Origin: a candidate division WOR-3 bacterium
GTDB taxonomy: Bacteria; Hydrothermota; Hydrothermia; LBFQ01; DSFT01
DNA length: 55,507 nucleotides
Reading direction: 5' to 3'
NCBI GenBank assembly: GCA_965649115.1
Contig: CBFGJN010000003.1
Location: 1 to 55,507 of the forward strand
Shown here: positions 35,415 through 55,507 of the stretch, piece after piece
How positions within the stretch are numbered: the stretch's first letter is position 1
Layout: every line of letters begins with the position of its first letter
Position numbers and translations under genes: made by a program
Notes under the pieces: model-generated
Seen by the model: the letters and a program-made list of their open reading frames with translations, nothing else
Database searches by the model: none
Told to the model about the DNA's origin: nothing

Positions 35415-37397
35415 TTAAAAGTTTATAATTTTGCTTTTATAATTTAAATTTCCTCTTATTTCAATGAAATATATACCTTTTGGTAAATTTAATGGCATTT
35501 CAATAAGGTTTTTATTAGTTTGTAAATTTTTACTTAAAACAATTCTTCCAGAACTATTGTAAATTTTTAATTCATAATTTCCAATTCTTGGAATTGAAAG
35601 TTTTAATTTATTATCCTTAATTTTGACAGATATAAATTCATTTTCAGGAATAAGGGCTACTGATGTTTGGTCAATATAGTGATTTGGATAATCAGGAATT
35701 ATTGTTGTAGGCTCTTTTATAAAATTAAAATAAAATGTTTGACTTGAAAGTGAATCTATATTTATTGTAGTATCAATTTGACTATTATCTGAAAATTTTA
35801 TTCTTATTGGATATTTTGGTATTTTGAACCTTGCCCAATTGTTAGGTTGATTTTGATTTACTTTAATATAAAAATCATAAGTTGAGCCATTGAAATTCTT
35901 TGATATTAAAAATTGAAATTGTGGATGTCCTGGCTTAAATATCCATTGATTGAAGAAATAACCTATGGATGTATCCTTATTTTCATTATTCAAGAATTCT
36001 TTAATGTCATTTTCAAAATCAATAATTCTTGCATAGGAAAATTTTCTCTTATTTCCATAATATCTTAATGCTTCAAAAAACTTATTATCACCCGTAGCAC
36101 TATCGTTGTAAATAACTCTAAATAACAATCTTAAAGCATGTAAAACAGCACTTCCTTTACTATAAGTTATATTCCCGTCAAAAACATCACCGAGACTTGG
36201 TCCTGGATTGTAAATTGGTTTGTTATAATCACCATAATTTAAATATCTGTTTATATCGCCATGTATTTGTCCTAAATATCCTCTATTGTTTCCATAGTCA
36301 CCATAACCCAAATTATTCTCATCATAAATTGCTTCTGAAAATGTTGCAAAACTTTCATTTATAAAAATATCTTTAAATGTAGCACAAGTTACCATATTAC
36401 CCCACCAGTGATGTGAAAGTTCATGAGCACTTAAAATTTCATAATTCGTAGCTATTGTAAATGTATTTGTTTGATTTTCCATAGCACCACCAAAGAAACC
36501 TTGAAATATCTGAACTTCCGCATACTTTTCATCATAAAATGGATAAATTCCATATTTGTTAGAAAAGATTGTAAGTTGATTTGGTAAATATGATGAAGGA
36601 CCATTATTATTTGGACCTAAGTAATGATAAATAGGCATAGATATATTATTGTAATTCCAAGTTTGAGTTTGGATTGTAAATTGATTTGAGGAAGCAAAAA
36701 CTATTAAATAGGGAGCTATTGGATGGCCTTCTTTATAATGATAAGTTATCCAATTTCCTTCAATTATTGAATCAATAAGTTTTCCATTTGCTATTGTTTT
36801 CCAACCAATTTTCGTTTTAATTTTAGCATCTACTATTTGAGCCTTTTCATATGGTAAATCAAAGCTTGGTAGCCATCTTCTCAATCCAAAAGGTTCATTA
36901 TCCGCATAAACAATATCATTCTGCTTTAAGTCAAGACCTCCACCAAATGAAGAGCCTGCTCTATTTGTTATTCCATGATAGTAAATTTCCACTCTAAAAC
37001 TATCATTAGGGTTTATTGTAGAAGGAAATTTTACTATTATTAAAGTATCACCAGGTGTGTAATAATTGAAAGGTTTGTAATTCCCGTTATGGAAAAATTT
37101 AATAGAATCAATAATCAAATTGTTTTTAACTGTATCAGTCCAATACGGAACAACATAAAAACCTTTTATAAAATGAAGGTAGATACTATCAGTTGGATCA
37201 ATTGCTTTAAATGTGATTTTATTATAAGCATTTAGAATAGGCCTTAAATTTTGGGCATTTTTTATGCTATCTATCCATATAAAATAATCGTACTTTATAA
37301 CCTTGAAGGTCTTATATTCAACATCTGGCCAAGTATAGGATAGAATTTCAATTTTTTGAAGGTTCTTTTCAGGAATAAAAGTAAGTAGATAAAACAT
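35415..37397 (-). CDS. M1 family zinc aminopeptidase with T9SS-type CTD
   Basis: GAMEN, HELSHHWWG + NESFATFSE, YSKG; C-terminus LKIYNSSGR..LPKGIYFIEI. Confidence 0.92.
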   Translation of the reverse strand: MFYLLTFIPEKNLQKIEILSYTWPDVEYKTFKVIKYDYFIWIDSIKNAQNLRPILNAYNKITFKAIDPTDSIYLHFIKGFYVVPYWTDTVKNNLIIDSIKFFHNGNYKPFNYYTPGDTLIIVKFPSTINPNDSFRVEIYYHGITNRAGSSFGGGLDLKQNDIVYADNEPFGLRRWLPSFDLPYEKAQIVDAKIKTKIGWKTIANGKLIDSIIEGNWITYHYKEGHPIAPYLIVFASSNQFTIQTQTWNYNNISMPIYHYLGPNNNGPSSYLPNQLTIFSNKYGIYPFYDEKYAEVQIFQGFFGGAMENQTNTFTIATNYEILSAHELSHHWWGNMVTCATFKDIFINESFATFSEAIYDENNLGYGDYGNNRGYLGQIHGDINRYLNYGDYNKPIYNPGPSLGDVFDGNITYSKGSAVLHALRLLFRVIYNDSATGDNKFFEALRYYGNKRKFSYARIIDFENDIKEFLNNENKDTSIGYFFNQWIFKPGHPQFQFLISKNFNGSTYDFYIKVNQNQPNNWARFKIPKYPIRIKFSDNSQIDTTINIDSLSSQTFYFNFIKEPTTIIPDYPNHYIDQTSVALIPENEFISVKIKDNKLKLSIPRIGNYELKIYNSSGRIVLSKNLQTNKNLIEMPLNLPKGIYFIEIRGNLNYKSKIINF

Positions 37398-37403
37398 TTT
37401 GAA

Positions 37404-37409
37404 ATTTTA
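37404..37409 (-). promoter_or_regulatory. -10-like box CCCT-TAAAAT
   Basis: 6 nt before ATG 37397. Confidence 0.65.
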
Positions 37410-37423
37410 AGGGATAATTTTTT

Positions 37424-37627
37424 TGCTGTGTCTAGTAATTCTAAAAACTATTTATTTTACTATATTTTCCCACCCACCCTGAAATTAAGCTTTCAGCTTA
37501 AAAATACCCATTCTTATGCCTTGGGGGGCTTCGCCCCCCATTAAACCCCCGTAAAATCAATAATTCCAATAAAATTTTTATAAGATATTGATTATCAATT
37601 ACTTAACACTATTTATTGGACAAAGCA
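37424..37627 (+). mobile_element. Full-length MITE-like element, copy L (204 bp)
   Basis: TGCTGTGTCTAGTAAT...TTATTGGACAAAGCA; AAGCT-TTC-AGCTT; GGGGGGC-TTC-GCCCCCC. Confidence 0.92.
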
Positions 37628-37635
37628 AGAGTTAG

Positions 37636-37815
37636 TGCTTTGTCTAGTAATTCTAAAATTATGATTATTTCTATCTTTCCCCACCCACCCTAATAATAAG
37701 CCTTCGGCTTGAAAATATCCATATTTCGGCAGAGGGGGCAAAAATCAATAATTTCCTTTAAATTTTTATAAGTTATTGATTGTCAAGCATTTAAAACTAT
37801 TTACTAGACAAAGCA
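37636..37815 (+). mobile_element. MITE-like element, copy M (tandem with L)
   Basis: TGCTTTGTCTAGTAA / TTACTAGACAAAGCA perfect 15-bp TIR; 8 bp from L; L+M flanked by TAATTTTTT direct repeats. Confidence 0.92.
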
Positions 37816-37904
37816 TAATTTTTTTGCCTTCAAATTAAACCTTAAGTAATTTGAGCAAACCTCACCCATTCTAAAAATAAGGTGGAGACTTGAAAGTAAT
37901 ATTT

Positions 37905-38798
37905 CTATTTTACAGCTATTCCTACTAATGGCAAATGATTATCTAATTTTTCGTTTTTTAAATAGTTTTCAAGATCAAGGACAATTTTTTCAGGAATTTT
38001 ATAGTCATAGTAAATTGCACTTCCAACACTTATAAATAAAGCACCTGCAAATATATATTCAAGGGCATCTTTATAATCAAATATCCCTCCAAGTCCGATA
38101 ATCGGGCATTTAAAAGCTTTATATGTTTCATAAACTTTTTTTAAAATAATTGGTTTTACTGCTTTACCTGAAAAACCACAAAAAACTCTTTCAAAATAAG
38201 GTTTTTTCTTTTCAATATCTATTTTTATTCCAACTGGACTATTTGCCAAGTTTATAATATCAGCACCATAATTCAAAGCAACTTCAACATAAGGCAATAT
38301 ATTACCTTCTGGAGAAAATTTAACAATTATTGGTTTTTTAGTTATATTTTTTGCATTCTTTAAAATGTACTTTATTGATTGCTCACTAAAACAAAACAAA
38401 CCTCCTTCAACATTCGGACAAGATAAATTCAATTCAAATAATGATATTTTTTCAAGTTTATTTAGTTTTTCTAAATTTTCTAAGAATTCATCTTCATCAT
38501 GACCTGCTATTGAACAAATTAAAATTGTTTCAAAATTTTGAAATTTTGGATAAACTTCATTTATAAATTTATCTACACCAGGATTTTTCAATCCAACAGA
38601 ATTATAAACAACATATTCTTCAATAAGGATATTTGGAGGTGGATTTCCAATTCTTTCATTTTTTGTTAAACTTTTAAATGTTATTGCACCAAGCATTTGG
38701 AAATTTATTTTTCCGAGATATTCCTCACCAAACCACCAAGGACCTGATGCCAAAACTACGGGATTTTTAAATTCTAAATTTAAAAATTTAAATTTCAT
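37905..38798 (-). CDS. pyrD: Dihydroorotate dehydrogenase, class 1 catalytic subunit
   Basis: NPVVLASG, NSVGLKNPG, ELNLSCPNV, PIIVKFSP, PIIGLGGI. Confidence 0.9.
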   Translation of the reverse strand: MKFKFLNLEFKNPVVLASGPWWFGEEYLGKINFQMLGAITFKSLTKNERIGNPPPNILIEEYVVYNSVGLKNPGVDKFINEVYPKFQNFETILICSIAGHDEDEFLENLEKLNKLEKISLFELNLSCPNVEGGLFCFSEQSIKYILKNAKNITKKPIIVKFSPEGNILPYVEVALNYGADIINLANSPVGIKIDIEKKKPYFERVFCGFSGKAVKPIILKKVYETYKAFKCPIIGLGGIFDYKDALEYIFAGALFISVGSAIYYDYKIPEKIVLDLENYLKNEKLDNHLPLVGIAVK

Positions 38799-39712
38799 TT
38801 TTTATCAAGATTTATGAAGTTTGGTTTATCAGATATTATGACTTGGACTTTATCTGATAATTTATCAACATAAAGATAATCAATGTATTTTGGATTTTGA
38901 TTTAGTGCTTTTGCTATAATTTCAATTTCCTGTGCCTTTGATTGAGCTTGAATTTTTCTTTTTTGAGCTTCAAGTTCTTCTGATTGAAGTTCATATTTTA
39001 ATTTTTCTGCTTTTTGTTTTGATATTGCTATTTCCTCAATTGTTTTAAGAAATTCTGGTGTTACCTTAACTTCCTCAATTGAAACGCTATTTATATAAAT
39101 TCCATAATTTCTAAATTTTTCATTTAAAGCATTTCTTATATTTTCAGAAAATTCTTTCTTGGCAGTTGTCCAAATTTCTACTGCTTGATATTTTGATAAT
39201 TCAATTTTTGTAATTGACTTTGTTTCTGATTCAATTATCTGGTTATAATTACTATTTCCTAATAATTTATGAAGCTTTATTATATTAGAAGTATCTATTG
39301 AATACCAAATTCTTAAATCCAATCCAATTTGAACACCATCCGAACTTGAAGACCATATTGTAAATGGTTTTTGAGTAGGAAAAACTTTTATTTTGCTATC
39401 ATATATACTAACCTCATTTATAAATGGTACATTAAAGCTTATTCCTCCTTTATAAATATAATAGTTCCCAGTAATTGAATTGTAAATCAATAAATAATTT
39501 TGAGATGAAGCAAACCTTATTGTAAAACCTATAAGGAATAAAATTATTGAAATTAAAATAGATGGAATTGCTTTTTTGGTAAATGTAAATTTACTTGTTG
39601 TTATAATTTCTCCTCCTTTTTCAACAAGGATTTCCTGCGAAGAATGTTTGAATATGCTATAAATCAAAATGATTATTGAAATTATGATTATAAAATAATT
39701 ATAGGCGCTCAT
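38795..39712 (-). CDS. SPFH/prohibitin domain membrane protein
   Basis: Two N-terminal TMs; SSDGVQIGLDL; FLKTIEEIAISKQKAEK. Confidence 0.85.
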   Translation of the reverse strand: MSAYNYFIIIISIIILIYSIFKHSSQEILVEKGGEIITTSKFTFTKKAIPSILISIILFLIGFTIRFASSQNYLLIYNSITGNYYIYKGGISFNVPFINEVSIYDSKIKVFPTQKPFTIWSSSSDGVQIGLDLRIWYSIDTSNIIKLHKLLGNSNYNQIIESETKSITKIELSKYQAVEIWTTAKKEFSENIRNALNEKFRNYGIYINSVSIEEVKVTPEFLKTIEEIAISKQKAEKLKYELQSEELEAQKRKIQAQSKAQEIEIIAKALNQNPKYIDYLYVDKLSDKVQVIISDKPNFINLDKK

Positions 39713-39719
39713 AAAGAAA

Positions 39720-39725
39720 ATTTTA
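39720..39725 (-). promoter_or_regulatory. -10-like box GCTT-TAAAAT
   Basis: 7 nt before ATG 39712, in the 36-nt gap after kup. Confidence 0.65.
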
Positions 39726-39748
39726 AAGCTGAAACAAAATGGATACTT

Positions 39749-41557
39749 TTATATAATAACACGACTTATTACACCGTGCATTTTATGTGAAGGAAAATTA
39801 TAGAATTCATCAAATCTTGGTGATATTCTCTTAATAAATGCATAAATTTTGTAAAACCATTTATCAGTTATAATTTCTTCAAATCCATAAAATATAACCT
39901 TTTCATCTATTCCACTTTCTTTCAATATTTCTTCAACATTAACAAATTCAAGATAGCCAAATTCAATTTTAAATAAATCTAATCCATAAAGTAATTCTTT
40001 TTCAAAACCAAATTTAATACCAAATGGTTCATCTTTTTTTACTAATGAAAGAAATACATTCCTTTCGTAAATTATAGCTTGATTGAACATTACATTTATA
40101 ACATAAGGAGGAACTTTTTGATAATCTCTTACTAAAAATACTGCTGTTCCCTTAATTTTGTTAGCATTTTCATAAACATTATTGAACATAATTTCAAATT
40201 CTTTGAAATCAATTGGTTGTAATTTTTCATAAACTTTTCTTTGTCCTTTTGTATAATTTATTATAATAAAAATTAGAAATATAGCAATAACGATAGGTAT
40301 ATAAGCACCACTTGGGATTTTTAAACTTCCCGAAAGAACAAACATTAAATCACAGATTGTTACAAAAACTGAAAGAACAAAAAAAATCCATTCCTTTTTA
40401 TAAAAATTCAAAATGGAAAGCAAAATTCCTGTTATTAGCATTGTTAAAGCTACTGAAAAACCATAAGCATGACCAAGATTTTCAGATTTCTTGAAAATAA
40501 GTACAACTAAAACTACACAAATAAATAAACTATAATTTACAAAACTTGAATAAATTTGCCCATATAGCTCTTTTGAAAGATGTTTAAATTTAATTCTTGG
40601 GAAAAGACCTAAGTTTGATGCTTGAAAAAATAATGAAAAAACTGCGGTTATAATAGCTTGGGAGGCTATTATGGTAGCAAGTATAGTTAGAATTAAAAAC
40701 GGAATATAAAGATATGGAAAATTCTCATTAAACATTTCAAAAAAAACATTTTGAGAATTTGGATTTTTTATCAAATAAACACCTTGTCCAAGATAATTAA
40801 GAACTAATGATGGAAAAACAAAAAAGAACCAAGATTTTTGAATTCTTTCTTTTCCAATATGACCTATATCAGAATATAATGCTTCACCTCCTGTTGCTGC
40901 AAGTATAACCTCTGATAAAACGATAAATGATAAAAACCCATTTTTTATTATAAATTCAATGGCAAATATAGGATTTAGAGCAATTAAAATGCTTGGCATT
41001 TTTATTGTTTCTAAAAGACCTACTATGAATAACGCTAAAAACCAAACTAACATTATAGGACTAAATGCTGGATAAATTTTATCTGCTCCACCTTTTTGGA
41101 TATAGAATAAAAATATAAATATAACTATTGTTATGGCTATTATAAAATTTTGGTCTAGATTTTGAAAATAACTTATGACTTTTATTCCTTCAACTGCACT
41201 TAATACTGAAATGGCAGGCGTTATAATACCATCACCTGCTAAAAAAGAAATTCCAAAATAAATAAGTAAAGAAATAAAAGAAACAACTCTTAAATTCTTT
41301 ATATTTTTTAGTGCTATTTCACCTAAAATTATTTGACCACCTTCACCTCTTATGCTAAAACGCATGGCTAAAAATGCATATTGAATTGAAACAATAATTA
41401 CAAGTGTCCAAAAAATCAGTGAAACAATACCATAAATATCTTCTTGTTTTGGTTTTGTAAGAAGAGCAATAATAGTTAAGGTGTATATAGGACTTGTCCC
41501 GATATCTCCAAATACAATTCCAAGAGGTCTAAAAATATCAGAAAAGAATTTTTTCAT
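39749..41557 (-). CDS. kup: KUP/HAK/KT potassium transporter
   Basis: LGIVFGDIGTSPIY, GEGG, GDGIITPAISVLSAVEG, GGEALYSDIGH. Confidence 0.96.
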   Translation of the reverse strand: MKKFFSDIFRPLGIVFGDIGTSPIYTLTIIALLTKPKQEDIYGIVSLIFWTLVIIVSIQYAFLAMRFSIRGEGGQIILGEIALKNIKNLRVVSFISLLIYFGISFLAGDGIITPAISVLSAVEGIKVISYFQNLDQNFIIAITIVIFIFLFYIQKGGADKIYPAFSPIMLVWFLALFIVGLLETIKMPSILIALNPIFAIEFIIKNGFLSFIVLSEVILAATGGEALYSDIGHIGKERIQKSWFFFVFPSLVLNYLGQGVYLIKNPNSQNVFFEMFNENFPYLYIPFLILTILATIIASQAIITAVFSLFFQASNLGLFPRIKFKHLSKELYGQIYSSFVNYSLFICVVLVVLIFKKSENLGHAYGFSVALTMLITGILLSILNFYKKEWIFFVLSVFVTICDLMFVLSGSLKIPSGAYIPIVIAIFLIFIIINYTKGQRKVYEKLQPIDFKEFEIMFNNVYENANKIKGTAVFLVRDYQKVPPYVINVMFNQAIIYERNVFLSLVKKDEPFGIKFGFEKELLYGLDLFKIEFGYLEFVNVEEILKESGIDEKVIFYGFEEIITDKWFYKIYAFIKRISPRFDEFYNFPSHKMHGVISRVII

Positions 41558-42564
41558 AGATATTCTTCAAAGTTCATGTTTTTTAACAAATTAACAATAT
41601 CTCTAACATTTTGAGCATTTTCTTTTGGTATAACTAGAACTGCATCTTTTGTTTTAACAATAATTAGATTTTCAACACCATAAACACCACAAATTCCATC
41701 TTTTGAAATTATTATACAATTTTTCGTATTAATTTTTGCCACTTTCCCAAGTATCACATTTCCATTTTCATCTTTTTTGAATATATTTTCAAGTGAAGTA
41801 TATAATCCTAAATCTTCCCATTCAAAACTTGCTTTGATTAGAGCGATATTGTCAGATTTTTCCATAATAGCATAATCAATTGATATATTTCTAACATTTT
41901 TATAAAATTCTAATTTGTTTTTTGAACTTTCAAAAGCTTGAATAATATCATAAGCAAATTTTTCATAAGCTTTTATAATTGTTTTTTTATTAAATATGAA
42001 CATTCCAGAATTCCAAAAGAAACTGCCTGATTGAATGTACTCTTTTGCTTTTTCAAAGGAGGGTTTTTCGTGAAATTTTTTTACTTTATAGACATTATTT
42101 CTTATTTCATCACTAACTTCAACATATCCAAACCCCGTTTCAATTCTCGTTGGTTTTATACCAAAGACAACAATATAATCCATTTTTGCAATTTCAATTC
42201 CTAAATTAACATCATCTTTAAAAGCTTGAAAATTTTTAATAATATGGTCGGATGTTTGAACAAAAATTATATCATCATCTTTAATTTTTAAATTTCTTAT
42301 TGAATAGTAAATAGCTGGTGCAGTATTTTTACCAAATGGTTCTATAATAAATTTAGCGTCTTTTATGATTTTCTTTATTTGTTTTTGAAGTTCTTGTGTC
42401 GTAATGATATATACCTCTCCAAAAAGTTTTGCTCTTTCATAAGCCTCTAAAATTAATGGTTTTCCAGTAAATAAATCTAATAATTGTTTTGGTTTATTTT
42501 TTCTTGAAAGGGGCCAAAATCTTTCTCCTTTTCCTCCTGCTAATATAAAAGAAAGGATTTTCAT
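41554..42564 (-). CDS. manC: Mannose-1-phosphate guanylyltransferase
   Basis: LAGGKGERFWPLSR..PKQ, EPFGKNTAPA, FHEKP, WNSGMF, SIDYAIMEK. Confidence 0.93.
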   Translation of the reverse strand: MKILSFILAGGKGERFWPLSRKNKPKQLLDLFTGKPLILEAYERAKLFGEVYIITTQELQKQIKKIIKDAKFIIEPFGKNTAPAIYYSIRNLKIKDDDIIFVQTSDHIIKNFQAFKDDVNLGIEIAKMDYIVVFGIKPTRIETGFGYVEVSDEIRNNVYKVKKFHEKPSFEKAKEYIQSGSFFWNSGMFIFNKKTIIKAYEKFAYDIIQAFESSKNKLEFYKNVRNISIDYAIMEKSDNIALIKASFEWEDLGLYTSLENIFKKDENGNVILGKVAKINTKNCIIISKDGICGVYGVENLIIVKTKDAVLVIPKENAQNVRDIVNLLKNMNFEEYL

Positions 42565-42575
42565 TAATTTTCAAA

Positions 42576-42581
42576 AGTTTA
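42576..42581 (-). promoter_or_regulatory. -10-like box CCTT-TAAACT
   Basis: 11 nt before manC ATG. Confidence 0.55.
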
Positions 42582-42653
42582 AAGGTTTATTGATAGAATT
42601 TTTTTCTTTTATTAGGGCTTTTTCCAATAAATAAGGCATTTTTTTCTTAACTT

Positions 42654-42659
42654 TAAAAT
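42654..42659 (+). promoter_or_regulatory. -10-like box ACTT-TAAAAT
   Basis: 7 nt before GTG 42667. Confidence 0.65.
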
Positions 42660-42666
42660 TTTCAAA

Positions 42667-43488
42667 GTGCTTTACTTTTTTAATGATGAATTTACAAATT
42701 CTGCTTACTTACCATTAGAAGAGAGGAGTGTAAATTTTGGGGATGGTGTTTATGAAGTAATTGTCACTTATAATTTTAGACCATTTAAGATAGATGAGCA
42801 TATAAATAGATTATTTTATAGTGCTGGGGAAATTTTTTTAAAAGTTCCATATAGTATTCAGGAAATAAAAACAATTATAGATGAAGGAATAAAGAAAATT
42901 TCAAAACCAAATTTAAAAATATATATTCAACTTTCAAGAGGTTCTTATGAAAGAACTCACGAATTTCCTCCAAGTTATATAAAACCAAACTTTTTTATAA
43001 TTTTTAGGGAATTTCAAAGAATTGAAGATAATATTAGATTTAAAGGTGTTAAATTATTTACCTATCCTGATATTAGGTGGGAAAGATGCGATATTAAAAG
43101 TTTAAATTTACTACCTAATGTTCTTGCTAAACAATTTTCAAGAAATAAAGGTGGATTTGAGGCTTTATTTATTAAGAATGGTAAAATTACTGAATGTGCT
43201 TCAAGTTCATTTTTTGCATTTATAGATGATAAGTTAATAACTCACCCTTTAACTAATGAAATTCTATCTGGTATTACAAGAAGTGAGGTTATAAACATAG
43301 CCAAAAGTCTAGGTTTTGAAGTTATTGAAAGACCTATTTTCATAAATGAAATTGAAAAAATTCAAGAATGCTTTATAACAAGTACAACTGCAGAAGTTTT
43401 ACCTATAATTAGTATTGATAATTATCAATTCCCTATTGGAGAAAGAACGCTTAAAATATATAATGAGTTTATAAAGAAAGTCTTATGA
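42667..43488 (+). CDS. Class IV aminotransferase, D-amino-acid aminotransferase-like
   Basis: FGDGVYE, HINRL, RCDIKSLNLL (PLP Lys), ILSGITR. Confidence 0.88.
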   Translation: MLYFFNDEFTNSAYLPLEERSVNFGDGVYEVIVTYNFRPFKIDEHINRLFYSAGEIFLKVPYSIQEIKTIIDEGIKKISKPNLKIYIQLSRGSYERTHEFPPSYIKPNFFIIFREFQRIEDNIRFKGVKLFTYPDIRWERCDIKSLNLLPNVLAKQFSRNKGGFEALFIKNGKITECASSSFFAFIDDKLITHPLTNEILSGITRSEVINIAKSLGFEVIERPIFINEIEKIQECFITSTTAEVLPIISIDNYQFPIGERTLKIYNEFIKKVL

Positions 43489-44465
43489 ATGTCTTAATAA
43501 CAGGAGGTGCAGGATATATAGGTAGTTTTATTGTTAAGGTATTAAAAAATGATTTTAATTTGCTTGTTATTGATTCACTTGAAGAAGGACACAAATGGGC
43601 TGTTAAAGATTGCCCATTAGTTGTAGGTGATATTTCAGATGAAAAAATTTTAAATGATATTTATGAGAATTTCAAGCCTGATGTTATTATTCATTGTGCT
43701 GCTTATGTTGTTGTTCCTGAATCAGTAAAAAATCCCTTTAAGTATTACGAGAATAATTTTTATAAATCTTTAAAGATGTTAAAATTCTTTTTAGAAAGAA
43801 AACTAAAATTTTTTATCTTTTCATCAACTTGTGCTGTATATGGTAATCCTAAATATATTCCTGTTGATGAAAATCATCCAATTGAACCAATTAACCCATA
43901 TGGATGGTCTAAGTTTTTCTTTGAAAAAGCAATAATGGATTTAAAAAATGTTTATGATTTTGAATATATTATTTTAAGGTACTTTAATGCTGCTGGTGCA
44001 AGTCTTGATGGAACACTTGGACAACACAAAAAAGACCCTCAGCATTTAATTTCAAGAATAATTAAAACAATTTTTGGGTTTTATGAAGAATTAAAGATTT
44101 ATGGAAACGATTATCCAACAAAAGATAGAACAGCAATAAGAGATTTTATTCATGTTGTTGATTTAGCAGAATTACACAAATTAGCACTTGAATATGTTAT
44201 AGAAACAAAGAAAAGTGATATATTCAATTTAGGTTATGGTAGAGGTTATAGTGTTCTTGAAGTTGTTGAAATGGCTAATAAAATTCTAAAACCTTTTAAA
44301 TATAGTTTTGCTCCAAGAAGAGAAGGAGACCCTGCTATTTTAATAAGTGATAATAAAAAAATTAAAACAGTACTTGGATTTAATCCAAAGTACAACGATA
44401 TGGAAATTATTCTAAAAACTGCATATAATTGGGAAAAATATAGAATTGAAAATGGATTAGATTGA
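43485..44465 (+). CDS. galE: UDP-glucose 4-epimerase
   Basis: TGGAGYIGS, VPESV, FSSTCAVYG, PYGWSK, LRYFNAAGA, RDFIHV. Confidence 0.95.
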   Translation: MNVLITGGAGYIGSFIVKVLKNDFNLLVIDSLEEGHKWAVKDCPLVVGDISDEKILNDIYENFKPDVIIHCAAYVVVPESVKNPFKYYENNFYKSLKMLKFFLERKLKFFIFSSTCAVYGNPKYIPVDENHPIEPINPYGWSKFFFEKAIMDLKNVYDFEYIILRYFNAAGASLDGTLGQHKKDPQHLISRIIKTIFGFYEELKIYGNDYPTKDRTAIRDFIHVVDLAELHKLALEYVIETKKSDIFNLGYGRGYSVLEVVEMANKILKPFKYSFAPRREGDPAILISDNKKIKTVLGFNPKYNDMEIILKTAYNWEKYRIENGLD

Positions 44466-44496
44466 AATTGGTATTACGCACAAATCAGTTTAAGGC

Positions 44497-44607
44497 TAAA
44501 AAATTATTTATTTTATTATTTATCCCCACCCACCCTATATTCAAGGCTCCGCCTTAAAAACCTCGCCCCCCTAAAAGCCCCCCATTATTTCAAGAATTCT
44601 GATAAGA
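44497..44607 (+). mobile_element. MITE-like repeat, internal copy N (no TIRs)
   Basis: CCCCACCCACCCTATATTC-AAGGC-TCC-GCCTT..CCTCGCCCCCC. Confidence 0.75.
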
Positions 44608-44645
44608 CTCTGCTCCCCATTAAATCCATAATTTTAAAAAACTTC

Positions 44646-45722
44646 TCATAAGTTATTGCAGATTGAAATTAATGTATCAACAATAATTTTACTTGGATAA
44701 AAACGTTTAAATTCTTTTTTTCTTCTAAAATTATAATAATTTTCAAAAAAATAATTTATTTTTTCATCTTTAAATTCAGAAAGAAAAGCAGTTTCATCTA
44801 AACCAACTTCTCTTTCCGTTCTTTCTCTCAATAGTAAACAAGGAACATTTAAATAATAAGTTTCTTCTTGGAGTCCTCCACCATCAGTTATTACAAAAGC
44901 ACTATCTCTAACTAAGTTCATAAAGGTTATGTAATCTAAATAACCCATAATTTCAATGTTTTGATTATTTTTTATAATATCGTAAAGTTTGAACTTTTTT
45001 AATTGAACTTCACTTGGTTTGTGAATTATGTATTTTACTTTTTTTAGTTTTGATGCTCTGATTATAATATCAATACATTTTTTGAATCTTTCTTTATTGT
45101 AAATTGTCTCTTGTCTGTGAATTGCAGATACAATATAATTAGAATTTCTTGGATCATCATCTTTTGGACGCACAAATTCGCAAAGTGTATCATAAACTGT
45201 ATTCTGAAAAGTATTAACAATAATTTTTTTCCCTTCGTACTTTTTTAAATTACTTTTAGCCCAATCAGAAGGCGGGAATAAAATATCTGAAAAATGAACA
45301 GAAATAATTCTAACTAATTCTTCTGGAAATGGATGAAATATATTAAATGACCTTAAACCTGATTCAATATGTGCAACTTTCATGTTAAATAATTTACCTA
45401 TGATTACTGCTAAAAGTGTTGATATTGTATCACCTTGAGTTATCAAAATTTTTTGATTTTTAATTTTGTTTTTATGCTTAAAAGCATTAATGATAACTTT
45501 TAAAATAAAAATTGGAATTTCATATACATTCTTTAAATCCTTTTGTTCGTTTCTTAAATTTAAATCTGGCTTTCTCAATCCAAATTTTTCTTCAAGAACT
45601 CTATTAAATGATGGTTGTTGATCAGTTTGAACATATAGATAATCTATCTTTCTCTTTTCAAGTTCTAACATTACTCCTGCCATTTTAATTAATTGTCCTT
45701 TTGTTCCAATTAAGATAACCAT
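44646..45722 (-). CDS. wecB: UDP-N-acetylglucosamine 2-epimerase family
   Basis: GTKGQLIKM (divergent), QGDT, HIESGLRS, PFPEE, HRQE, TDGGGLQEE. Confidence 0.85.
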   Translation of the reverse strand: MVILIGTKGQLIKMAGVMLELEKRKIDYLYVQTDQQPSFNRVLEEKFGLRKPDLNLRNEQKDLKNVYEIPIFILKVIINAFKHKNKIKNQKILITQGDTISTLLAVIIGKLFNMKVAHIESGLRSFNIFHPFPEELVRIISVHFSDILFPPSDWAKSNLKKYEGKKIIVNTFQNTVYDTLCEFVRPKDDDPRNSNYIVSAIHRQETIYNKERFKKCIDIIIRASKLKKVKYIIHKPSEVQLKKFKLYDIIKNNQNIEIMGYLDYITFMNLVRDSAFVITDGGGLQEETYYLNVPCLLLRERTEREVGLDETAFLSEFKDEKINYFFENYYNFRRKKEFKRFYPSKIIVDTLISICNNL

Positions 45723-45736
45723 AAAATAAATTGAAA

Positions 45737-45742
45737 ATTTTA
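45737..45742 (-). promoter_or_regulatory. -10-like box CTT-TAAAAT
   Basis: 14 nt before ATG 45722; 22 nt from MITE O. Confidence 0.55.
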
Positions 45743-45764
45743 AAGATAAATAAACCTTATAAAT

Positions 45765-45929
45765 TGCTGTGTCTAGTAATTCTGAAATATAGATTATTTC
45801 TTATTTTGCCCGCCCACCCTGAAAATAAGGCTTCGCCCCCCTATAATCCCCCATAAAATCAATAATTTCTTTAAAAATTTTATAAGTTATTGATAATCAA
45901 GGATTTAACAATAATTATTGGACAAAGCA
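45765..45929 (+). mobile_element. MITE-like element, copy O (165 bp) with perfect 9-bp TSD
   Basis: CTTATAAAT|TGCTGTGTCTAGTAAT...ATTATTGGACAAAGCA|CTTATAAAT. Confidence 0.95.
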
Positions 45930-45945
45930 CTTATAAATTTAACTT

Positions 45946-45951
45946 TAAAAT
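45946..45951 (+). promoter_or_regulatory. -10-like box ACTT-TAAAAT
   Basis: 7 nt before radA ATG 45959. Confidence 0.7.
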
Positions 45952-45958
45952 TTCAATA

Positions 45959-47218
45959 ATGTTTATATGTTCAAATTGTGGATATAAATCTTTAAAGTGG
46001 ATAGGAAGATGTCCAAATTGTCAAGAATGGGAAACATTAATAAAAGAAGATGAAATGAAAATTGAAACTAATAATCAAAACGTTGAAATTAAAAAATTAA
46101 AGGATTTAGAATATATTAAGGAAGAGAGACTTATCTCAAATATAAATGAATTTGATAGGGTTGTTGGTGGTGGTATTTTAAAGGGTTCTTTAATTTTAAT
46201 GGGAGGAGACCCTGGTGTTGGAAAATCAACTATTGCTTTACAATTAGCAAGTAGATTTAAATCGTTGTATATTAGTTCAGAAGAATCTTTAAATCAAGTC
46301 TTATCAAGAGCCAAAAGGATTGGAATAAATAATGATAATGTTTATATTGTTTGTGAAAGTAATTTGGATAGAATTTTAAATAATTTAAATGAAAGTTTTG
46401 ATTTAATTGTTATTGATTCAATACAAACGATATATTCAGATGAAATTCCTTCAAGTCCTGGCAGTGTTTCACAAATAAAGACATGTGCTTATAAATTACT
46501 TAAAGTTTCAAAATCAAGTAATACAGCAATTTTAATAATAGCTCACATTACAAAGGAAGGGGAAATATCAGGACCAAAATTATTAGAACATATCGTAGAT
46601 GTAGTTTTATATATGGAAACTAATGAAGCAAATTTAAGAATTTTAAGAAGTTATAAAAATCGTTTTGGACCCACAAATGAAATAGGAATTTTTGAGATGA
46701 CTGAAAAAGGATTAAAAGAAGTCAATAAACCCGAAAATTACTTCATTTCTGATATAAATTATGCTAAACCTTCAATAGCAAGAAGTATAATTTTAGAAGG
46801 ATTAAGACCACTAATTGTTGAAGTTCAAAGTTTAATAGTTAGAACATATTATCCAACACCGATAAGAAATTCAACGGGATATGATATTAGAAGATTAAAT
46901 ATGATTTTAGCTGTAATTGAAAAGTACCTAAATATAAAATTGAGAAATTATGATATTCATGTAAATATCGTTGGAGGAATTAGAGTTTCAGACCAAGCTA
47001 TTGATTTAGCTGTTGCTCTTTCTATAATTTCTGGATATAAGAATTTTCCTTTAAATCCAAAATTAGTTTATATTGGTGAAATAGGTTTGACAGGTGATAT
47101 TCACAAAGTTTTTCTAATGGATTTAAGAAAATCAGAAGCAAAAAGACTTGGTTTTGAAATTTATGAAAACAAAAAAACATTAATTGATACTTACAAGGAT
47201 ATTTTTGAAAATTTTTAG
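45959..47218 (+). CDS. radA: DNA repair protein RadA/Sms
   Basis: CSNCG..GRCPNC zinc finger, GGDPGVGKST, IDSIQT, KNRFG, Lon-like C-terminus; start moved out of the MITE. Confidence 0.96.
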   Translation: MFICSNCGYKSLKWIGRCPNCQEWETLIKEDEMKIETNNQNVEIKKLKDLEYIKEERLISNINEFDRVVGGGILKGSLILMGGDPGVGKSTIALQLASRFKSLYISSEESLNQVLSRAKRIGINNDNVYIVCESNLDRILNNLNESFDLIVIDSIQTIYSDEIPSSPGSVSQIKTCAYKLLKVSKSSNTAILIIAHITKEGEISGPKLLEHIVDVVLYMETNEANLRILRSYKNRFGPTNEIGIFEMTEKGLKEVNKPENYFISDINYAKPSIARSIILEGLRPLIVEVQSLIVRTYYPTPIRNSTGYDIRRLNMILAVIEKYLNIKLRNYDIHVNIVGGIRVSDQAIDLAVALSIISGYKNFPLNPKLVYIGEIGLTGDIHKVFLMDLRKSEAKRLGFEIYENKKTLIDTYKDIFENF

Positions 47219-47812
47219 AAATTCATTTGGCTTTTCAATGTGTGGCATATGACTACATTCATCAATAAAGTAATTTTTACAATTTAAAATTTCACTCGTT
47301 TTCAATAATTTTTCAATATCAACAATTTTATCATTTTTTCCTATTATGTGAAAACATAATATATTTTTTCTTTTGAATGTTTCTAAATACTTAAATGGAT
47401 TAAAATTATTTAGAATTTCAATATGATTTTTTAAAACATCAGAATTCTTAAACATCAAGTAATCTCTTTTTTTACAATCGTCAATAAACTTTTGGGAATA
47501 ATATAATTTTTCGCAAATTTCTTCTTTATCCAAATTTAAATTAAATTTTTCAAAAATAGCACCATTTACTAAAATAAGTGCTTGAATATTATTAAAAATT
47601 GTTGAAAAGTAGTATCCTATTGAACCACCCATAGAATGCCCAATTATTATAATTTTTGAATTGAAATAGTCTTTAAAGTAATCCGCATAATTTTCAATTT
47701 CATTAGCTTTTGGTAAATCAACATTTATTATTTCAAAATTTTTTAATTCTCTTGTAATTAAAAGCCAATTTAAATGCGAACCTCCTGCACCATGAATGAA
47801 AAATAATTTCAT
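47180..47812 (-). CDS. Alpha/beta hydrolase
   Basis: HGAGG, GHSMGG, GKNDKIV, CSHMPH. Confidence 0.85.
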   Translation of the reverse strand: MKLFFIHGAGGSHLNWLLITRELKNFEIINVDLPKANEIENYADYFKDYFNSKIIIIGHSMGGSIGYYFSTIFNNIQALILVNGAIFEKFNLNLDKEEICEKLYYSQKFIDDCKKRDYLMFKNSDVLKNHIEILNNFNPFKYLETFKRKNILCFHIIGKNDKIVDIEKLLKTSEILNCKNYFIDECSHMPHIEKPNEFLKIFKNILVSIN

Positions 47813-47860
47813 TTAATCAGGTAAAGAAAAAATTCCACTCATTAAAATTCCTGACAAACC

Positions 47861-48529
47861 CTAAAGCAAAGAGGCAGAGTATATATAAATAAATTGTTCA
47901 TTTGATAAATAAACGACAAAAAATATATCTGCTAATAAAAAGATAATTCCTGCTATTGAACCAATTATCCATCTTTTTCCAAGATCACTACCCCAAAATA
48001 TCCTCAAATCAATAATAGCAAATGTTGCAAGAATATAACCAAGAATTATTAGTACTAAATGGTAATAAAATTTTTCATCAAATTTGTAATTATTAATGAG
48101 TAATGAATAACCAACTACCAAAAGTAATATAAAAATTCCAAGGACTTGCAAAGCTTCACCAAGTGTAAGGCCATATCCACTTCTCATAAGTTGAATAAAC
48201 ATATAAACAACTGCACTTGCAAATGATAAATGCCCAATATATAGTAATGGATAAACGATGTAGTTTTCAAAATCAAATTGAATTAAGAAGAATCCAATAG
48301 CAAGTAAGAACCCTCCAAGCCCAAGCAGAAATGTTAATTTTCCTCTTGCAGTTTTTATACCAATTGTAATAAATGCCCTTCTCATTGAAACAATAAAGAA
48401 AACTATAAATAGTACTGCTGGAATTGAAAGGGAATAGATTGGACTATAAGGATTAAAGAAAAGGTAATAAATTCCAAGAACAATCCACAAGGTTATATTA
48501 AATAATGTTATAAAGAATGTGAAGTTCAT
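47861..48529 (-). CDS. Hypothetical polytopic membrane protein (about 7 TM), apparently cut by an in-frame TAG
   Basis: Hydrophobic throughout; the frame stays open 15 codons past TAG to TAA 47815-47813, which abuts the next ATG. Confidence 0.6.
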   Translation of the reverse strand: MNFTFFITLFNITLWIVLGIYYLFFNPYSPIYSLSIPAVLFIVFFIVSMRRAFITIGIKTARGKLTFLLGLGGFLLAIGFFLIQFDFENYIVYPLLYIGHLSFASAVVYMFIQLMRSGYGLTLGEALQVLGIFILLLVVGYSLLINNYKFDEKFYYHLVLIILGYILATFAIIDLRIFWGSDLGKRWIIGSIAGIIFLLADIFFVVYLSNEQFIYIYSASLL

Positions 48530-48535
48530 ATTGAA

Positions 48536-48541
48536 ATTTTA
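48536..48541 (-). promoter_or_regulatory. -10-like box ACTT-TAAAAT
   Basis: 6 nt before ATG 48529. Confidence 0.7.
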
Positions 48542-48564
48542 AAGTTTAGAGAATTATTGCAAGG

Positions 48565-48589
48565 ACTTTCAGAATTATTAGACATAGCA
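48565..48589 (-). repeat. Solo MITE left-end fragment
   Basis: Reverse complement TGCTATGTCTAATAATTCTGAAAGT matches the start of copy K. Confidence 0.7.
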
Positions 48590-48605
48590 CACACCATTTA
48601 AAAAT

Positions 48606-48784
48606 TGCTTTGTCTAGTAAATAATATTAAGTTGCTGATTAATTATGAATTTTACGGGGGGACTTTATGGGGGGCAGAGCCCCCCACTGCCGAAAAATGG
48701 GCATTTTAAAGCCGTAGGCTTTAATTTTGGGCGGGTGGGGAAAACATAGAAAAATAAATAGTATCAGAATTATTGGACAAAACA
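48606..48784 (-). mobile_element. MITE-like element, copy P with perfect 9-bp TSD
   Basis: TTTAAAAAT|TGCTTTGTCTAGTAA...TTATTGGACAAAACA|TTTAAAAAT; GGGGGGC-AGA-GCCCCCC; AAAGCC-GTA-GGCTTT. Confidence 0.92.
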
Positions 48785-48799
48785 TTTAAAAATCACCTT

Positions 48800-48805
48800 T
48801 AAACT
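48800..48805 (+). promoter_or_regulatory. -10-like box CCTT-TAAACT
   Basis: 5 nt before TTG 48811 (or 8 nt before TTG 48814). Confidence 0.6.
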
Positions 48806-48810
48806 TTCAA

Positions 48811-49518
48811 TTGTTGATAATTTTCCTTTTATTTGACTTACCAAATGACCCAAAAACATTATATGAAGTTGCATTAAATGAATTTAAAAACAAAAATTAT
48901 AAGCAAGCTGAAAAAATTTTAAAAAGAATTATTTATTCGTTTTCACCTAATGAATGGACTGATAAAGCACAGTTTTATTTAGCACTTTTATATTATGAAA
49001 TAAAAAATTATGAACTTGCAAAGATTGAAGCAGAATTCTTTGTAAATAATTTTAAATATAGTGAATTTTATCCAAATGGTTTAATTTTACTTGCAAAAAT
49101 TTATTATAAATTATCACCAAATCCACATAAAGATATATCTGAACTTAACAAAGCAATTGAAATTTTAAATAGAGTTAAAACATTGTATCCAAGTTATAGT
49201 CAATCAGCTGATAGTATAATGTTCCTAATTAGAAAAAAATTTGCCCAAAAAATTTTAATTTCTGCCAATGTTTATAGAAACATTGAAAAACCAAAATCAG
49301 AAGCAATTTACCTTGAATACTACTTAAATAATTACATTGATATTGAACCTGATTCAGTAGCATATAGACTACTTGAAATATACGAAACTTTAAATGAAAA
49401 AGAAAAAATTATTAATTTAACTGAATTAATTCTCAAAGGTGATAATTTTTCTTCATGGATAAAAAAAGTAGCCCTTGAGAAACGAGATAAATATGGCTAT
49501 CGCTCTGATAGGAGGTAG
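48811..49518 (+). CDS. bamD: Outer membrane protein assembly factor BamD
   Basis: TPR pattern LYEVALNEFKNKNY..DKAQFYLA..FVNNFKYS; KFAQKILISANVY; no lipobox visible. Confidence 0.8.
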   Translation: MLIIFLLFDLPNDPKTLYEVALNEFKNKNYKQAEKILKRIIYSFSPNEWTDKAQFYLALLYYEIKNYELAKIEAEFFVNNFKYSEFYPNGLILLAKIYYKLSPNPHKDISELNKAIEILNRVKTLYPSYSQSADSIMFLIRKKFAQKILISANVYRNIEKPKSEAIYLEYYLNNYIDIEPDSVAYRLLEIYETLNEKEKIINLTELILKGDNFSSWIKKVALEKRDKYGYRSDRR

Positions 49519-50065
49519 ATTTGATCCAATTCATATTGGGCATCTTATTATAGCAGAAGATTTATTAGAGATTTTAAATGTTGAAAAAGTTATATTTCTT
49601 TTAAGTCATAATCCACCGCATAAAGTTGTTTATTCAAGCTTTGAAGATAGATTTAACATGATAAAAATAGCTATCAATAACTATAAAAAATTTGAAGTTT
49701 GGGATATTGAAAAAAGAATGAATTTAGAAAAAAGTTATAGTTTTTTAGTACTAAAAGAAATTTTAAGGATAGGTTATAAAAATTTATACTTTGTAATAGG
49801 TTCAGATCAATTTGAAAACTTTAAAAGTTGGTATAATTACGAGGAGATTCTTAATATGGTTAATGTTGTTGTTGTTCAAAGACCTTCAAAAAATTATAAC
49901 TATCCAAGAGAATTATTAAACAAAGTCAAAATTTTAAATAATAGATTAATTGAAGTTTCATCGTCGGAAATTAGGAAAAGAATTAAAGAAAATAGAGAGT
50001 TTAAATTTCTTGTTCCTTATGGTGTTTATGAGTATATTATAGAGAAAAAATTGTACCTTATTTGA
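49493..50065 (+). CDS. nadD: Nicotinate-nucleotide adenylyltransferase
   Basis: GGRFDPIHIGH, PPHK, FVIGSD, VSSSEIR; start moved to MAIAL. Confidence 0.93.
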   Translation: MAIALIGGRFDPIHIGHLIIAEDLLEILNVEKVIFLLSHNPPHKVVYSSFEDRFNMIKIAINNYKKFEVWDIEKRMNLEKSYSFLVLKEILRIGYKNLYFVIGSDQFENFKSWYNYEEILNMVNVVVVQRPSKNYNYPRELLNKVKILNNRLIEVSSSEIRKRIKENREFKFLVPYGVYEYIIEKKLYLI

Positions 50066-50084
50066 AATTGAAGCATTTAAATTT

Positions 50085-50260
50085 GGCTTTGTTCAGCGAT
50101 TATTGTTAAGTATGATAATCAATCACCTATAAAAAATTCGCTAAAATGCTTGAAATAATGGAGTGAATTTAGGGGGAGCGGAGCTCCCATAGCCGAAATA
50201 TGGGTATTTATAAAGCTCCGCTTTATTTCGTAGGGTGGGTGAGCAAAATCATAATTACTT
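50085..50260 (-). mobile_element. MITE-like repeat, degenerate copy Q
   Basis: GGCTTTGTTCAGCGAT end, TGATAATCAA, GGGAGC-GGA-GCTCCC, AAATATGGGTAT, AAAGC-TCC-GCTTT, AGGGTGGGTG. Confidence 0.8.
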
Positions 50261-50270
50261 TTATGTCCTT

Positions 50271-50276
50271 TAAACT
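50271..50276 (+). promoter_or_regulatory. -10-like box CCTT-TAAACT
   Basis: 8 nt before gyrB ATG. Confidence 0.65.
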
Positions 50277-50284
50277 TTTGATAT

Positions 50285-52192
50285 ATGCAAATGTTTGATT
50301 ACACTGCTGAAAGTATAAAAAGATTAAAGGGATTAGAAGGTGTTAGAAAAAGACCCGCAATGTACATTGGTGATGTTGGTAAAAAAGGTTTTCATCATTT
50401 AGCTTTTGAAATAATAGATAATGCAATTGATGAGGTGCTTGCTGGATTTGCAAATTATGTAAAAGTAGTAATTCATAAAGATAATAGCGTCTCAGTTGAA
50501 GATAATGGAAGAGGAATACCTATTGATATTCATCCAGAAACAGGAACACCAGCAGTTGAAGTTGTATTTATGGAACTTCACGCAGGTGGTAAATTTGAAA
50601 GGAATATATATAAAATTTCGGGAGGGCTTCATGGTGTTGGAGCAAGTGTAGTTAATGCTTTATCTGAATGGACAGAAGTTTTTGTGAAAAGAAATGGAAA
50701 TTTATATAGAATGAAATTTTCAAGAGGTAAGAAAGTAGAGGATTTAAAAATTGTTTCAAAGGCAAATGGGACAGGGACTATTGTTAGATTTAAACCTGAT
50801 AAGGAGATATTTACAGATTACCCTAAACTTGAATTTGATTATGACTATATTGCTAATCGTTTAAGAGAAATTGCATTTTTAGTTCCAAATGTAAAAATTG
50901 AACTTATTGATGAAAGAACAAATAAGAGAGAGATTTTTCACTATCCAAGAGGTATAGTAGATTTTATTGATTACATTGATATTTCAAGAAAACACATTAC
51001 ACCAACATTTTGGACAAAATTTACAAATAACAGTGAAGAATTTATGGAAATTGAAATAGCACTTGCATATAATGAAGGTTATGATGAAGTCATAATTTCA
51101 TTTGTAAATACAGTTAATACTAAGGAGGGAGGAACTCATGTAACGGGATTTAAAAGTGCCTTAACCAAAGCAATTAATGATATAGGAAGAAAAATGAATT
51201 TAATAAAGAAAGAACCATTACAGGGTGAAGATGTTAGAGAAGGATTGACTGCCATAATTCATGCAAAACTTTCCAATCCTATATTTGAAGGTCAAACGAA
51301 GATAAAACTTGGAAATGATAGTGTTAGAAGTTTTGTAGAAGTAAATTTTTATGAAAAGTTTTCAAGATTTTTAGAGGAAAATCCAAAAATTGCTCAAATT
51401 ATAATAAACAAAGCATTAGAAAACCAAAAAGCAAGACTTGCTGCTAAAAAAGCAAAGGAAATTGTTAGAAGAAAGAGTTTTATTGAAAATGATAGTCTTC
51501 CAGGAAAATTAGCTGATTGTATAACGAAAGAAAGGGAAAGAGCTGAATTGTTTATCGTTGAAGGTGAGAGTGCGGGAGGTTCTGCTAAACAAGGTAGAAA
51601 TAGAGAATTTCAAGCGATATTACCATTAAAAGGTAAAATTTTAAATGTTGAAAAGAAAGGTTTAGATAAAGCATTAGATAATGAAGAATTAAAAACAATT
51701 ATTTCTGCTCTTGGTTGTGGAATAAAGGAAAATTGTAATCCAAATGAATGTAGATATGGCAAAATTATTATTATGACTGATGCGGATATAGATGGTGCCC
51801 ATATTAGAACATTATTACTCACTTTATTTTATAGATATTTTTATAATCTTATTGAAGCAGGAATGGTTTATATAGCTCAACCTCCTCTATATAGGATTCA
51901 AAAAGGCAAAATTATAAAATATGCTTATTCAGATGAAGAATTAAGTAAAATTTTAAAGGAAATAGGTTCAGAAAATGTTATGATTCAAAGGTATAAGGGT
52001 CTTGGAGAAATGAATCCTGAACAACTTTGGGAAACAACGATGAATCCAAAAACAAGAGTTTTAAAAAAAATTACTATTGAAGATGCAGCTGAGGCTGAAA
52101 GGTGGGTTTCGGTATGTATGGGTCTTGATGTATCGCCAAGAAAAGAATTTATTGAAAAATATGCTTTAAGTATTAAGGAACTTGATATATGA
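50285..52192 (+). CDS. gyrB: DNA gyrase / type II topoisomerase subunit B
   Basis: RKRPAMYIG, EIIDNAIDE, DNGRGIP, GGLHGVG, VEGESAGG, TDADIDG, YKGLGEM, C-terminal ELDI. Confidence 0.93.
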   Translation: MQMFDYTAESIKRLKGLEGVRKRPAMYIGDVGKKGFHHLAFEIIDNAIDEVLAGFANYVKVVIHKDNSVSVEDNGRGIPIDIHPETGTPAVEVVFMELHAGGKFERNIYKISGGLHGVGASVVNALSEWTEVFVKRNGNLYRMKFSRGKKVEDLKIVSKANGTGTIVRFKPDKEIFTDYPKLEFDYDYIANRLREIAFLVPNVKIELIDERTNKREIFHYPRGIVDFIDYIDISRKHITPTFWTKFTNNSEEFMEIEIALAYNEGYDEVIISFVNTVNTKEGGTHVTGFKSALTKAINDIGRKMNLIKKEPLQGEDVREGLTAIIHAKLSNPIFEGQTKIKLGNDSVRSFVEVNFYEKFSRFLEENPKIAQIIINKALENQKARLAAKKAKEIVRRKSFIENDSLPGKLADCITKERERAELFIVEGESAGGSAKQGRNREFQAILPLKGKILNVEKKGLDKALDNEELKTIISALGCGIKENCNPNECRYGKIIIMTDADIDGAHIRTLLLTLFYRYFYNLIEAGMVYIAQPPLYRIQKGKIIKYAYSDEELSKILKEIGSENVMIQRYKGLGEMNPEQLWETTMNPKTRVLKKITIEDAAEAERWVSVCMGLDVSPRKEFIEKYALSIKELDI

Positions 52193-55378: not shown

Positions 55379-55405
55379 TGCTTTGTCTGCCTTGTCCAAT
55401 AATTC
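55379..55405 (+). mobile_element. Doubled MITE-type terminus followed by non-MITE sequence
   Basis: TGCTTTGTC immediately followed by TGCCTTGTCCAATAATTC; the next 100 nt do not match the other copies. Confidence 0.65.
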
Positions 55406-55507
55406 CCCCTCTACCTTCCCTATGGATACCCCCACTATATTTTAACTCATCCCCTCCCATATCAACCCCTCAATCAGCCAAATTACTATAACTATAAAAA
55501 CTATTCA

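Follow-up and report, generated by a model that had tools for sequence, protein, structure and literature searches.

The locus examined here lies between an M1-family peptidase gene with a Por secretion tail and the dihydroorotate dehydrogenase gene (pyrD), in a MAG of the WOR-3/Hydrothermia lineage (1.85 Mb, 28% G+C); we refer to the whole stretch of DNA analysed, 55,507 nucleotides, as the window. The promoter region of the peptidase gene is occupied by a stack of two MITE copies, termed L and M (Table 1). Both are complete and lie in the same orientation, head-to-tail, with each copy running from TGCTKTGTCTAGTAA to TTAYTRGACAAAGCA, and the pair as a whole retains intact, mutually inverted outer ends, contributed by L on the left and by M on the right. 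The 9-mer TAATTTTTT occurs on the outer sides of the pair only and is absent between L and M, where an 8-bp spacer is found instead, and the whole L-spacer-M unit measures 392 bp. The two copies are 80% identical to one another (rank 80 of 204), with M carrying an internal deletion of ~24 bp, and the closest relative of L in the genome is 92% identical to it. To the right of the pair, a stretch that may be the degenerate left part of an older copy (remnant N) aligns weakly with the family consensus, under the nhmmer threshold.

Table 1. Positions of the features at the L-M locus and of related features elsewhere in the genome (numbers without a prefix are positions in the window; those with a prefix give contig and position).
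Feature	Position	Strand	Remarks
M1-family peptidase gene, Por secretion tail	35415-37397	-	stack located in its promoter region
Promoter-like host motif	37398-37414	-	TTTGAAATTTTAAGGGA on + strand; TCCCTTAAAATTTCAAA towards gene
Target duplication TAATTTTTT, left copy	37415-37423	+	9 bp
MITE copy L	37424-37627	+	204 bp, full length (model positions 1-205); nhmmer, blastn
Inner spacer AGAGTTAG	37628-37635	+	8 bp, between L and M
MITE copy M	37636-37815	+	180 bp, both ends intact, hairpin 2 deleted internally
Target duplication TAATTTTTT, right copy	37816-37824	+	9 bp
Possible degenerate remnant N (left part of older copy)	37825-37904	+	starts TGCCTTC..., includes CCTCACCCATTCTAAAAATAAGG
Dihydroorotate dehydrogenase (pyrD) gene	37905-38798	-	3' end towards stack
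End A (L-type) of presumed autonomous IS903-like IS	55388-55507	+	cut by contig end; 100% identical to 15 other contig ends
X-Y-X segment	C3:37424-37815		L-M
X-Y-X segment	C1:59266-59683		
X-Y-X segment	C4:18773-19153		
X-Y-X segment	C10:13807-14254		
X-Y-X segment	C27:20296-20790		
X-Y-X segment	C64:8001-8378		
Recurring 9-mer GTGGTGGGT	C17:16813 and C21:27442		
Recurring 9-mer GATGCTTTT	C11:25481 and C24:9124		
Recurring 9-mer GATTAAATT	C5:25678 and C5:39930		

The repeat that flanks the pair exceeds chance: TAATTTTTT has a genome-wide frequency of 2.1e-4 per position, and 9-mers taken from unrelated left and right flanks of the MITE family match at a rate of 4.6e-4. Further, contig JBDRXU010000050.1 of a second assembly of the species, GCA_039803085.1, carries M, the junction, L, and the right-hand TAATTTTTT in identical form save for one SNP, and stops 2 nt before the outer end of L. 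This assembly was located via an exact look-up of the pyrD protein and was the only other one with a pyrD match. The recurrence of the arrangement in an independent assembly means that it is not an artefact of a single one. The initial description of the locus in a sequence-only reading, as a tandem dimer with an 8-bp junction and a 9-bp duplication around the pair alone, is confirmed. Within the copies, the hairpins of L (37481-37496 and 37522-37538) and M (37694-37707) exhibit paired changes between copies, with the hairpin word reading AAGCTTTCAGCTT in L, AAGCCTTCGGCTT in M, and AAGGCTACGCCTT in another copy (GGGGGGCTTCGCCCCCC is also seen), and one G/C-rich hairpin has been wholly lost from M, the ends of which are still intact.

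The stack stands in a fixed relation to a host sequence. Specifically, the 17-nt motif TTTGAAATTTTAAGGGA is located directly upstream of the peptidase ATG (CAT at 37395-37397), placing the left end of the stack 17 nt from the start codon, and the promoter-like motif also precedes the orthologous peptidase gene in relatives that have no MITE at that position. Across the genome, most stacks have this motif at a fixed distance of a few bases from their left end, and the stack target lies mostly 10-11 nt, and less often 3-4 nt, after ...TTTTAAAG. The motif CTTTAAAATTTCAA ends 1-4 bases ahead of the start codons of many genes genome-wide, and further instances were seen at L001:1378-1398 and L002:2985-3000. 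Judging from this sequence pattern, CTTTAAAATTTCAA looks like the promoter box of leaderless or near-leaderless transcripts in this lineage. A promoter and terminator scan of the L-M stack itself returned nothing over background, and Rfam had no match anywhere in the window.

L and M belong to a large family. A profile built from 48 copies produced 738 nhmmer hits, which together account for 5.2% of the genome and include 215 full-length elements. The units are 165-207 bp long, have 15-bp inverted ends, and contain no ORF; their mean pairwise identity is 77%, and the median identity to the nearest neighbour is 90%. Perfect 9-bp duplications flank 89 of the 205 full units with scorable flanks, and a further 16 have duplications with one mismatch, as compared with 0.7 expected from shuffled flanks. 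Non-coding units with such duplications are therefore MITEs with 9-bp target duplications, and three features looked for in a MITE were found here, in that the units are short and non-coding with terminal inverted repeats, have a duplication of fixed length, and share a genome with a presumed autonomous element with matching ends (see below). Elsewhere in the window, a full minus-strand copy (48606-48783) with its own duplication, ATTTAAAAA, lies 16 bp beyond a right-type end (48575-48589), an arrangement that is not a head-to-tail dimer.

The family is arranged in stacks that follow a simple rule. Among 112 head-to-tail junctions, 94 have a 9-bp spacer and eight have an 8-bp spacer, a minority variant of the 9-bp class, and only three junctions are head-to-head or tail-to-tail. 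Neighbours within a stack are no closer to one another than are random pairs (identity of 0.771 vs 0.773), which indicates that stacks were formed by independent insertions and not by local duplication or as replicative dimers. Moreover, among the 89 units flanked by perfect duplications, 61 have a further element whose left end directly adjoins their right-hand duplication, and in 10 stacks the spacer and the outer flanks are one and the same 9-mer. The simplest reading of these patterns is that the constant short spacer represents a reused target duplication and not a circle junction. The spacers of other dimers, which the sequence-only reading had named as a check, are thus non-random, but the proposed cause, a junction of the copy-out/paste-in type, gives way to the reuse of target duplications. 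The same stacking architecture is seen at one locus, read by eye, in the congener G002; two long gapped patterns, run without a positive control on G000, had no matches in G002.

Transposition at a reused target is not the only process that appears to have shaped the stacks. Patterns in which spacers and flanks are mixed (XXY, XYY, and XXYY) are also present, and a dozen non-trivial 9-mers recur at the junctions of two loci, mostly between unrelated units (examples in Table 1). The recurrence between unrelated units implies that shuffling beyond simple transposition also acts on stacks. The recurrent 9-mers could reflect either the lifting of different pairs from one donor stack or reciprocal recombination between stacks. 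That no donor stack is seen is compatible with the lifting of pairs, because the donor in cut-and-paste transposition need not survive; reciprocal recombination, by moving flanks and spacers to new loci, would also explain the XXY, XYY, and XXYY patterns.

The element that presumably supplies the transposase was recognised solely via its ends at contig boundaries, its interior being absent from the assembly. Specifically, 16 contig ends stop within the same 100-120 bases, which begin with TGCCTTGTCCAATAATTCC and are 100% identical (end A; the window itself terminates in one of them), and 10 further contig ends stop in TGCTTTGTCCAATAAATAATGTCAAGG (end B), eight at 100% identity and two at 97.6%. 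Recurring contig ends of this kind are what an IS present in multiple near-identical copies leaves behind when it interrupts assembly, and the stopping of 26 contig ends in two IS ends makes this element a main cause of the fragmented state of the assembly. End A matches the left end of the MITE over ~18 nt and end B matches the right end over 26 nt; end A also lies ~19-21 nt (9-bp target included) from the promoter motif, which is the same distance as for the left ends of the MITEs. One contig, C93, extends 236 bases into end B and reaches the start of an ORF, MGKVNWQEYNKELVRRGEIW..., the first 56 residues of which form a transposase fragment (MGKVNWQEYNKELVRRG...) that matches NF033579 (IS5 family) over profile positions 2-51 with E = 3e-5, a score that for so short a piece lies below the curated cut-off. 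Relatives of this peptide in metagenomes (full-length proteins of 301 and 331 aa; 37-45% identity) score above the NF033579 cut-off and contain PF13737 and PF01609. The IS end TGCTTTGTCCAATAAATA is identical at 14 of 18 bases to the inverted repeat of IS903B, GGCTTTGTTGAATAAATC, an element with a direct repeat of 9 bp (PMC10569121), and a 9-bp target duplication is likewise tabulated for IS903 (PMC2577343).

Searches for the remainder of the element returned little. Pfam gave no match for the 56-residue fragment, PF01609 and PF13737 had no hit across the genome assembly, and a scan of the assembly for the DDE/YREK motifs of an autonomous IS found none. Pairs of inverted ends spaced 0.7-3 kb apart within contigs enclosed housekeeping genes only and no transposase gene, and the partner IS was not found in the 10 nearest relatives searched. 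From its ends and its N-terminus, with the interior unassembled, the partner appears to be an IS903-like element with an IS5-family N-terminus and a 9-bp duplication, and it looks recently active. Members of the IS903 group move by cut-and-paste, with occasional cointegrates, and are not known to use circles.

In six multi-unit segments, L-M among them, the outer 9-bp repeat is perfect and the inner spacer differs from it (X-Y-X; Table 1), and several of the outer repeats, such as TAATTGATG and TTTAGTATA, are not low-complexity sequences. Serial single insertions at one target can give only X-A-X-B-X, such that X-Y-X calls for the insertion of a unit that already contained Y. The inner spacer of L-M offers a clue as to what Y had been. 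The 8-mer AGAGTTAG occurs 58 times on both strands (3.7 Mb), yet at an element junction only twice, and the second such junction, C1:59471-59479, also lies within an X-Y-X dimer and reads AGAGTTAGT (9 bp), followed by TGCT. The sharing of AGAGTTAG(T) by two X-Y-X dimers would arise by chance with a probability of ~0.002 over ~100 junctions. Most likely, then, to judge from the two junctions, the L-M spacer is a former 9-bp duplication, AGAGTTAGT, from which one T has been lost at the boundary between spacer and end. The units of the C1 dimer are 76% and 77% identical to L and M (ranks 172 and 156 of 204), at or below the family average, and hence the two dimers do not form a recognisable dimer lineage. 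A 1,426-bp segment elsewhere (C11:31359-32784) has the left part of a MITE at its start, the right end of a MITE at its finish, and TATATCTTT on both sides, and encloses a 246-aa gene that has a promoter motif to itself; the segment would be either a passenger-carrying composite or a chance match, and chance may well account for it.

Comparison with relatives placed the stack at a break in gene order. The peptidase and pyrD genes reside on different contigs in all four congeners. In G002 (PSS.bin.3, 89% protein identity), a MITE-free gap of 38 bp separates the peptidase gene from a preceding 433-aa ORF, while here the ortholog of that ORF (54004-55350 in the window) is ~16.6 kb from the peptidase gene. 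The intervening ~16.6 kb (37398-54003) contain pyrD, a Band_7 gene, a K+ transporter gene, and others, with the MITE stack at one edge. The G002 sequence after the motif, GGATAATTTAAAATTTTTTG, shares only TAATTT with TAATTTTTT, corresponding to its first six bases. Downstream of pyrD, G002 has a MITE copy of its own (rank 104, and not an ortholog of M), followed by 9 bp and a remnant-like stretch. An empty site with a single TAATTTTTT was not found in clean form among the relatives compared, in that the flanking genes are not neighbours in any of the four congeners. A metagenome scan for the left flank gave no hits, and the exact peptidase protein has no record in other assemblies.

On the basis of these observations, we think it probable, if well short of certain, that L and M are two different MITE copies that moved together, as a composite, into a TAATTTTTT target near the peptidase promoter. 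In this account, an IS903-like (IS5-family) DDE transposase would mobilise the ~205-bp MITE in trans, with 9-bp target duplications, and insertion would occur with a single orientation, at a set position just upstream of the host promoter motif. Every insertion would regenerate its target and thereby permit repeated hits, giving rise to head-to-tail stacks with 9-bp duplications as spacers. L and M would have become neighbours in an earlier stack of this type, with AGAGTTAGT as the target, after which the transposase would have paired the two outermost ends, that of L on the left and that of M on the right. The 392-bp unit would then have landed in TAATTTTTT, before the older remnant, such that TAATTTTTT was duplicated around the pair, and one T of the inner spacer would have been lost afterwards. 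The position of the pair in front of a possible decayed copy fits this picture of a hot spot. The outer ends of L-M indeed form an inverted pair, and one duplication surrounds the whole, with none around either copy singly. We infer both the movement of the pair in a single event and the location of the donor stack: no near-identical multi-unit duplicates at two loci, and thus no second site for the L-M unit, were found in the genome, and neither this genome nor the four congeners yielded a donor stack with the target AGAGTTAGT. The lack of a donor and of an empty site in a relative, together with the clear signs of recombination among stacks, is why some doubt remains about the composite reading.

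Those signs of recombination suggest another history for the locus, in which two insertions produced TAATTTTTT-L-TAATTTTTT-M-TAATTTTTT, and the middle spacer was later swapped, by ectopic recombination or gene conversion, for that of a AGAGTTAGT stack. Unrelated units at separate loci often have a 9-mer in common, the mixed spacer patterns exist, and synteny with all congeners is broken at the stack, all of which demonstrates recombination among stacks. Nevertheless, the 120 bp of L and M nearest the junction are 79% and 72% identical to the corresponding parts of the C1 junction, in keeping with a background of 75% +/- 7, and the swap would need two exchanges within ~400 bp where composite transposition needs one event, which leaves conversion unlikely in our estimation. 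Exchange of a different kind is invoked if the matching TAATTTTTT flanks are an AT-rich coincidence, and recombination brought together L and M, or the stacks that held them, without their ever having had a duplication in common. TAATTTTTT is indeed a low-complexity word, the promoter region of G002 natively contains TAATTT, and the G002 sequence before the remnant-like stretch is also TAATT-like; still, set against the rarity of TAATTTTTT and of matches between unrelated flanks in this genome, and against five more segments with a perfect outer repeat, in which 9-mers that are not of low complexity occur, coincidence seems very improbable.

The abutment of a right and a left end across a spacer of nearly constant length genome-wide could also be taken to mean that a circular or tandem-dimer intermediate of copy-out/paste-in transposition was captured, with a circle or (IS)2 junction becoming fixed in the chromosome. 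Such abutment resembles the junctions of IS3, IS30, IS21, and IS256 (PMC3299598), and it was to this mode of transposition (IS3, IS30, IS256, ISLre2) that the sequence-only reading had ascribed the abutted ends and short spacer. However, a junction of this type joins the ends of one element and is transient and reactive, whereas L and M are different elements, one of which is short of ~24 bp, and the pair has been stable across two assemblies. Further, neighbours in stacks are not unusually alike, the spacer equals the outer duplication in most stacks, and the partner IS, with its IS903-like ends and IS5-family N-terminus, does not belong to a copy-out/paste-in family. We therefore rejected the identification of the spacer as a circle or (IS)2 junction, given that it joins ends of different elements, that spacers are copies of local targets, and that the transposase N-terminus is of the IS5 family, and regard a captured intermediate as next to impossible. 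Of the two options put forward at the outset, a captured intermediate or a minimal composite transposon, it is the composite that survives, on the strength of the one outer duplication, the different inner spacer, and the five similar segments.

If the composite account is extended to the other X-Y-X dimers, promoter-side hot spots might serve as assembly sites, where MITEs are stacked singly and neighbours are then lifted out as new composites, and one AGAGTTAGT hot spot, now vacant or lost, might have yielded at least two dimers, namely L-M and the pair at C1:59266. We offer this extension tentatively and consider it rather doubtful. If true, a minimal IS5-family transposase would recognise a host promoter motif in one set orientation and would continually turn its own debris into new, longer mobile units.

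Tn903 is the classical composite of the IS903 group, in which any two ends in the correct orientation suffice to mobilise the DNA that they enclose. The presumed partner IS resembles IS903 and IS903B in its 9-bp duplication, its 14 of 18 terminal bases shared with GGCTTTGTTGAATAAATC, and its IS5-family N-terminus. Unlike in Tn903, the units of L-M are direct repeats of a non-coding 205-bp derivative, with no passenger gene and with a former target duplication between them. The strict orientation and position preference of the MITE family beside a host promoter motif also differs from the target preference of IS903, tabulated as WTTYA-N9-TRAAW (PMC2577343). A likeness is also found in bacterial MITEs derived from the IS5 family, of the MITEAba12/ISAba12 type, which are short and non-coding, retain the ends and duplication length of the parent, are mobilised in trans, and can act in pairs as a composite; the family described here differs in making up 5% of a genome, in stacking head-to-tail at one target, and in forming a composite from two MITEs alone. 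A composite of two MITEs is a further instance of an established type of event, and L-M is an ordinary by-product of the stacking of its family. What the pair indicates is that stacks are not dead ends, with neighbouring copies being re-mobilisable together, which is one way in which longer, passenger-carrying transposons could arise. It further cautions that abutted ends with a constant short spacer, which in other families are taken as marks of circular intermediates, here mark the repeated use of a target.

The promoter-directed, orientation-specific stacking is the unusual feature of the family, and the wider family, occupying 5% of the genome of a thermophile in one orientation and at a fixed distance from promoters, is of more interest than the pair itself. 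A parallel to this placement is provided by the IS1202 family at dif/pdif sites (PMC10132070), which likewise inserts at a fixed distance and in a fixed orientation from a short host sequence, with reuse of the site being possible, but which differs in its transposase, its target (a Xer site vs a promoter motif), and the length of its duplication.
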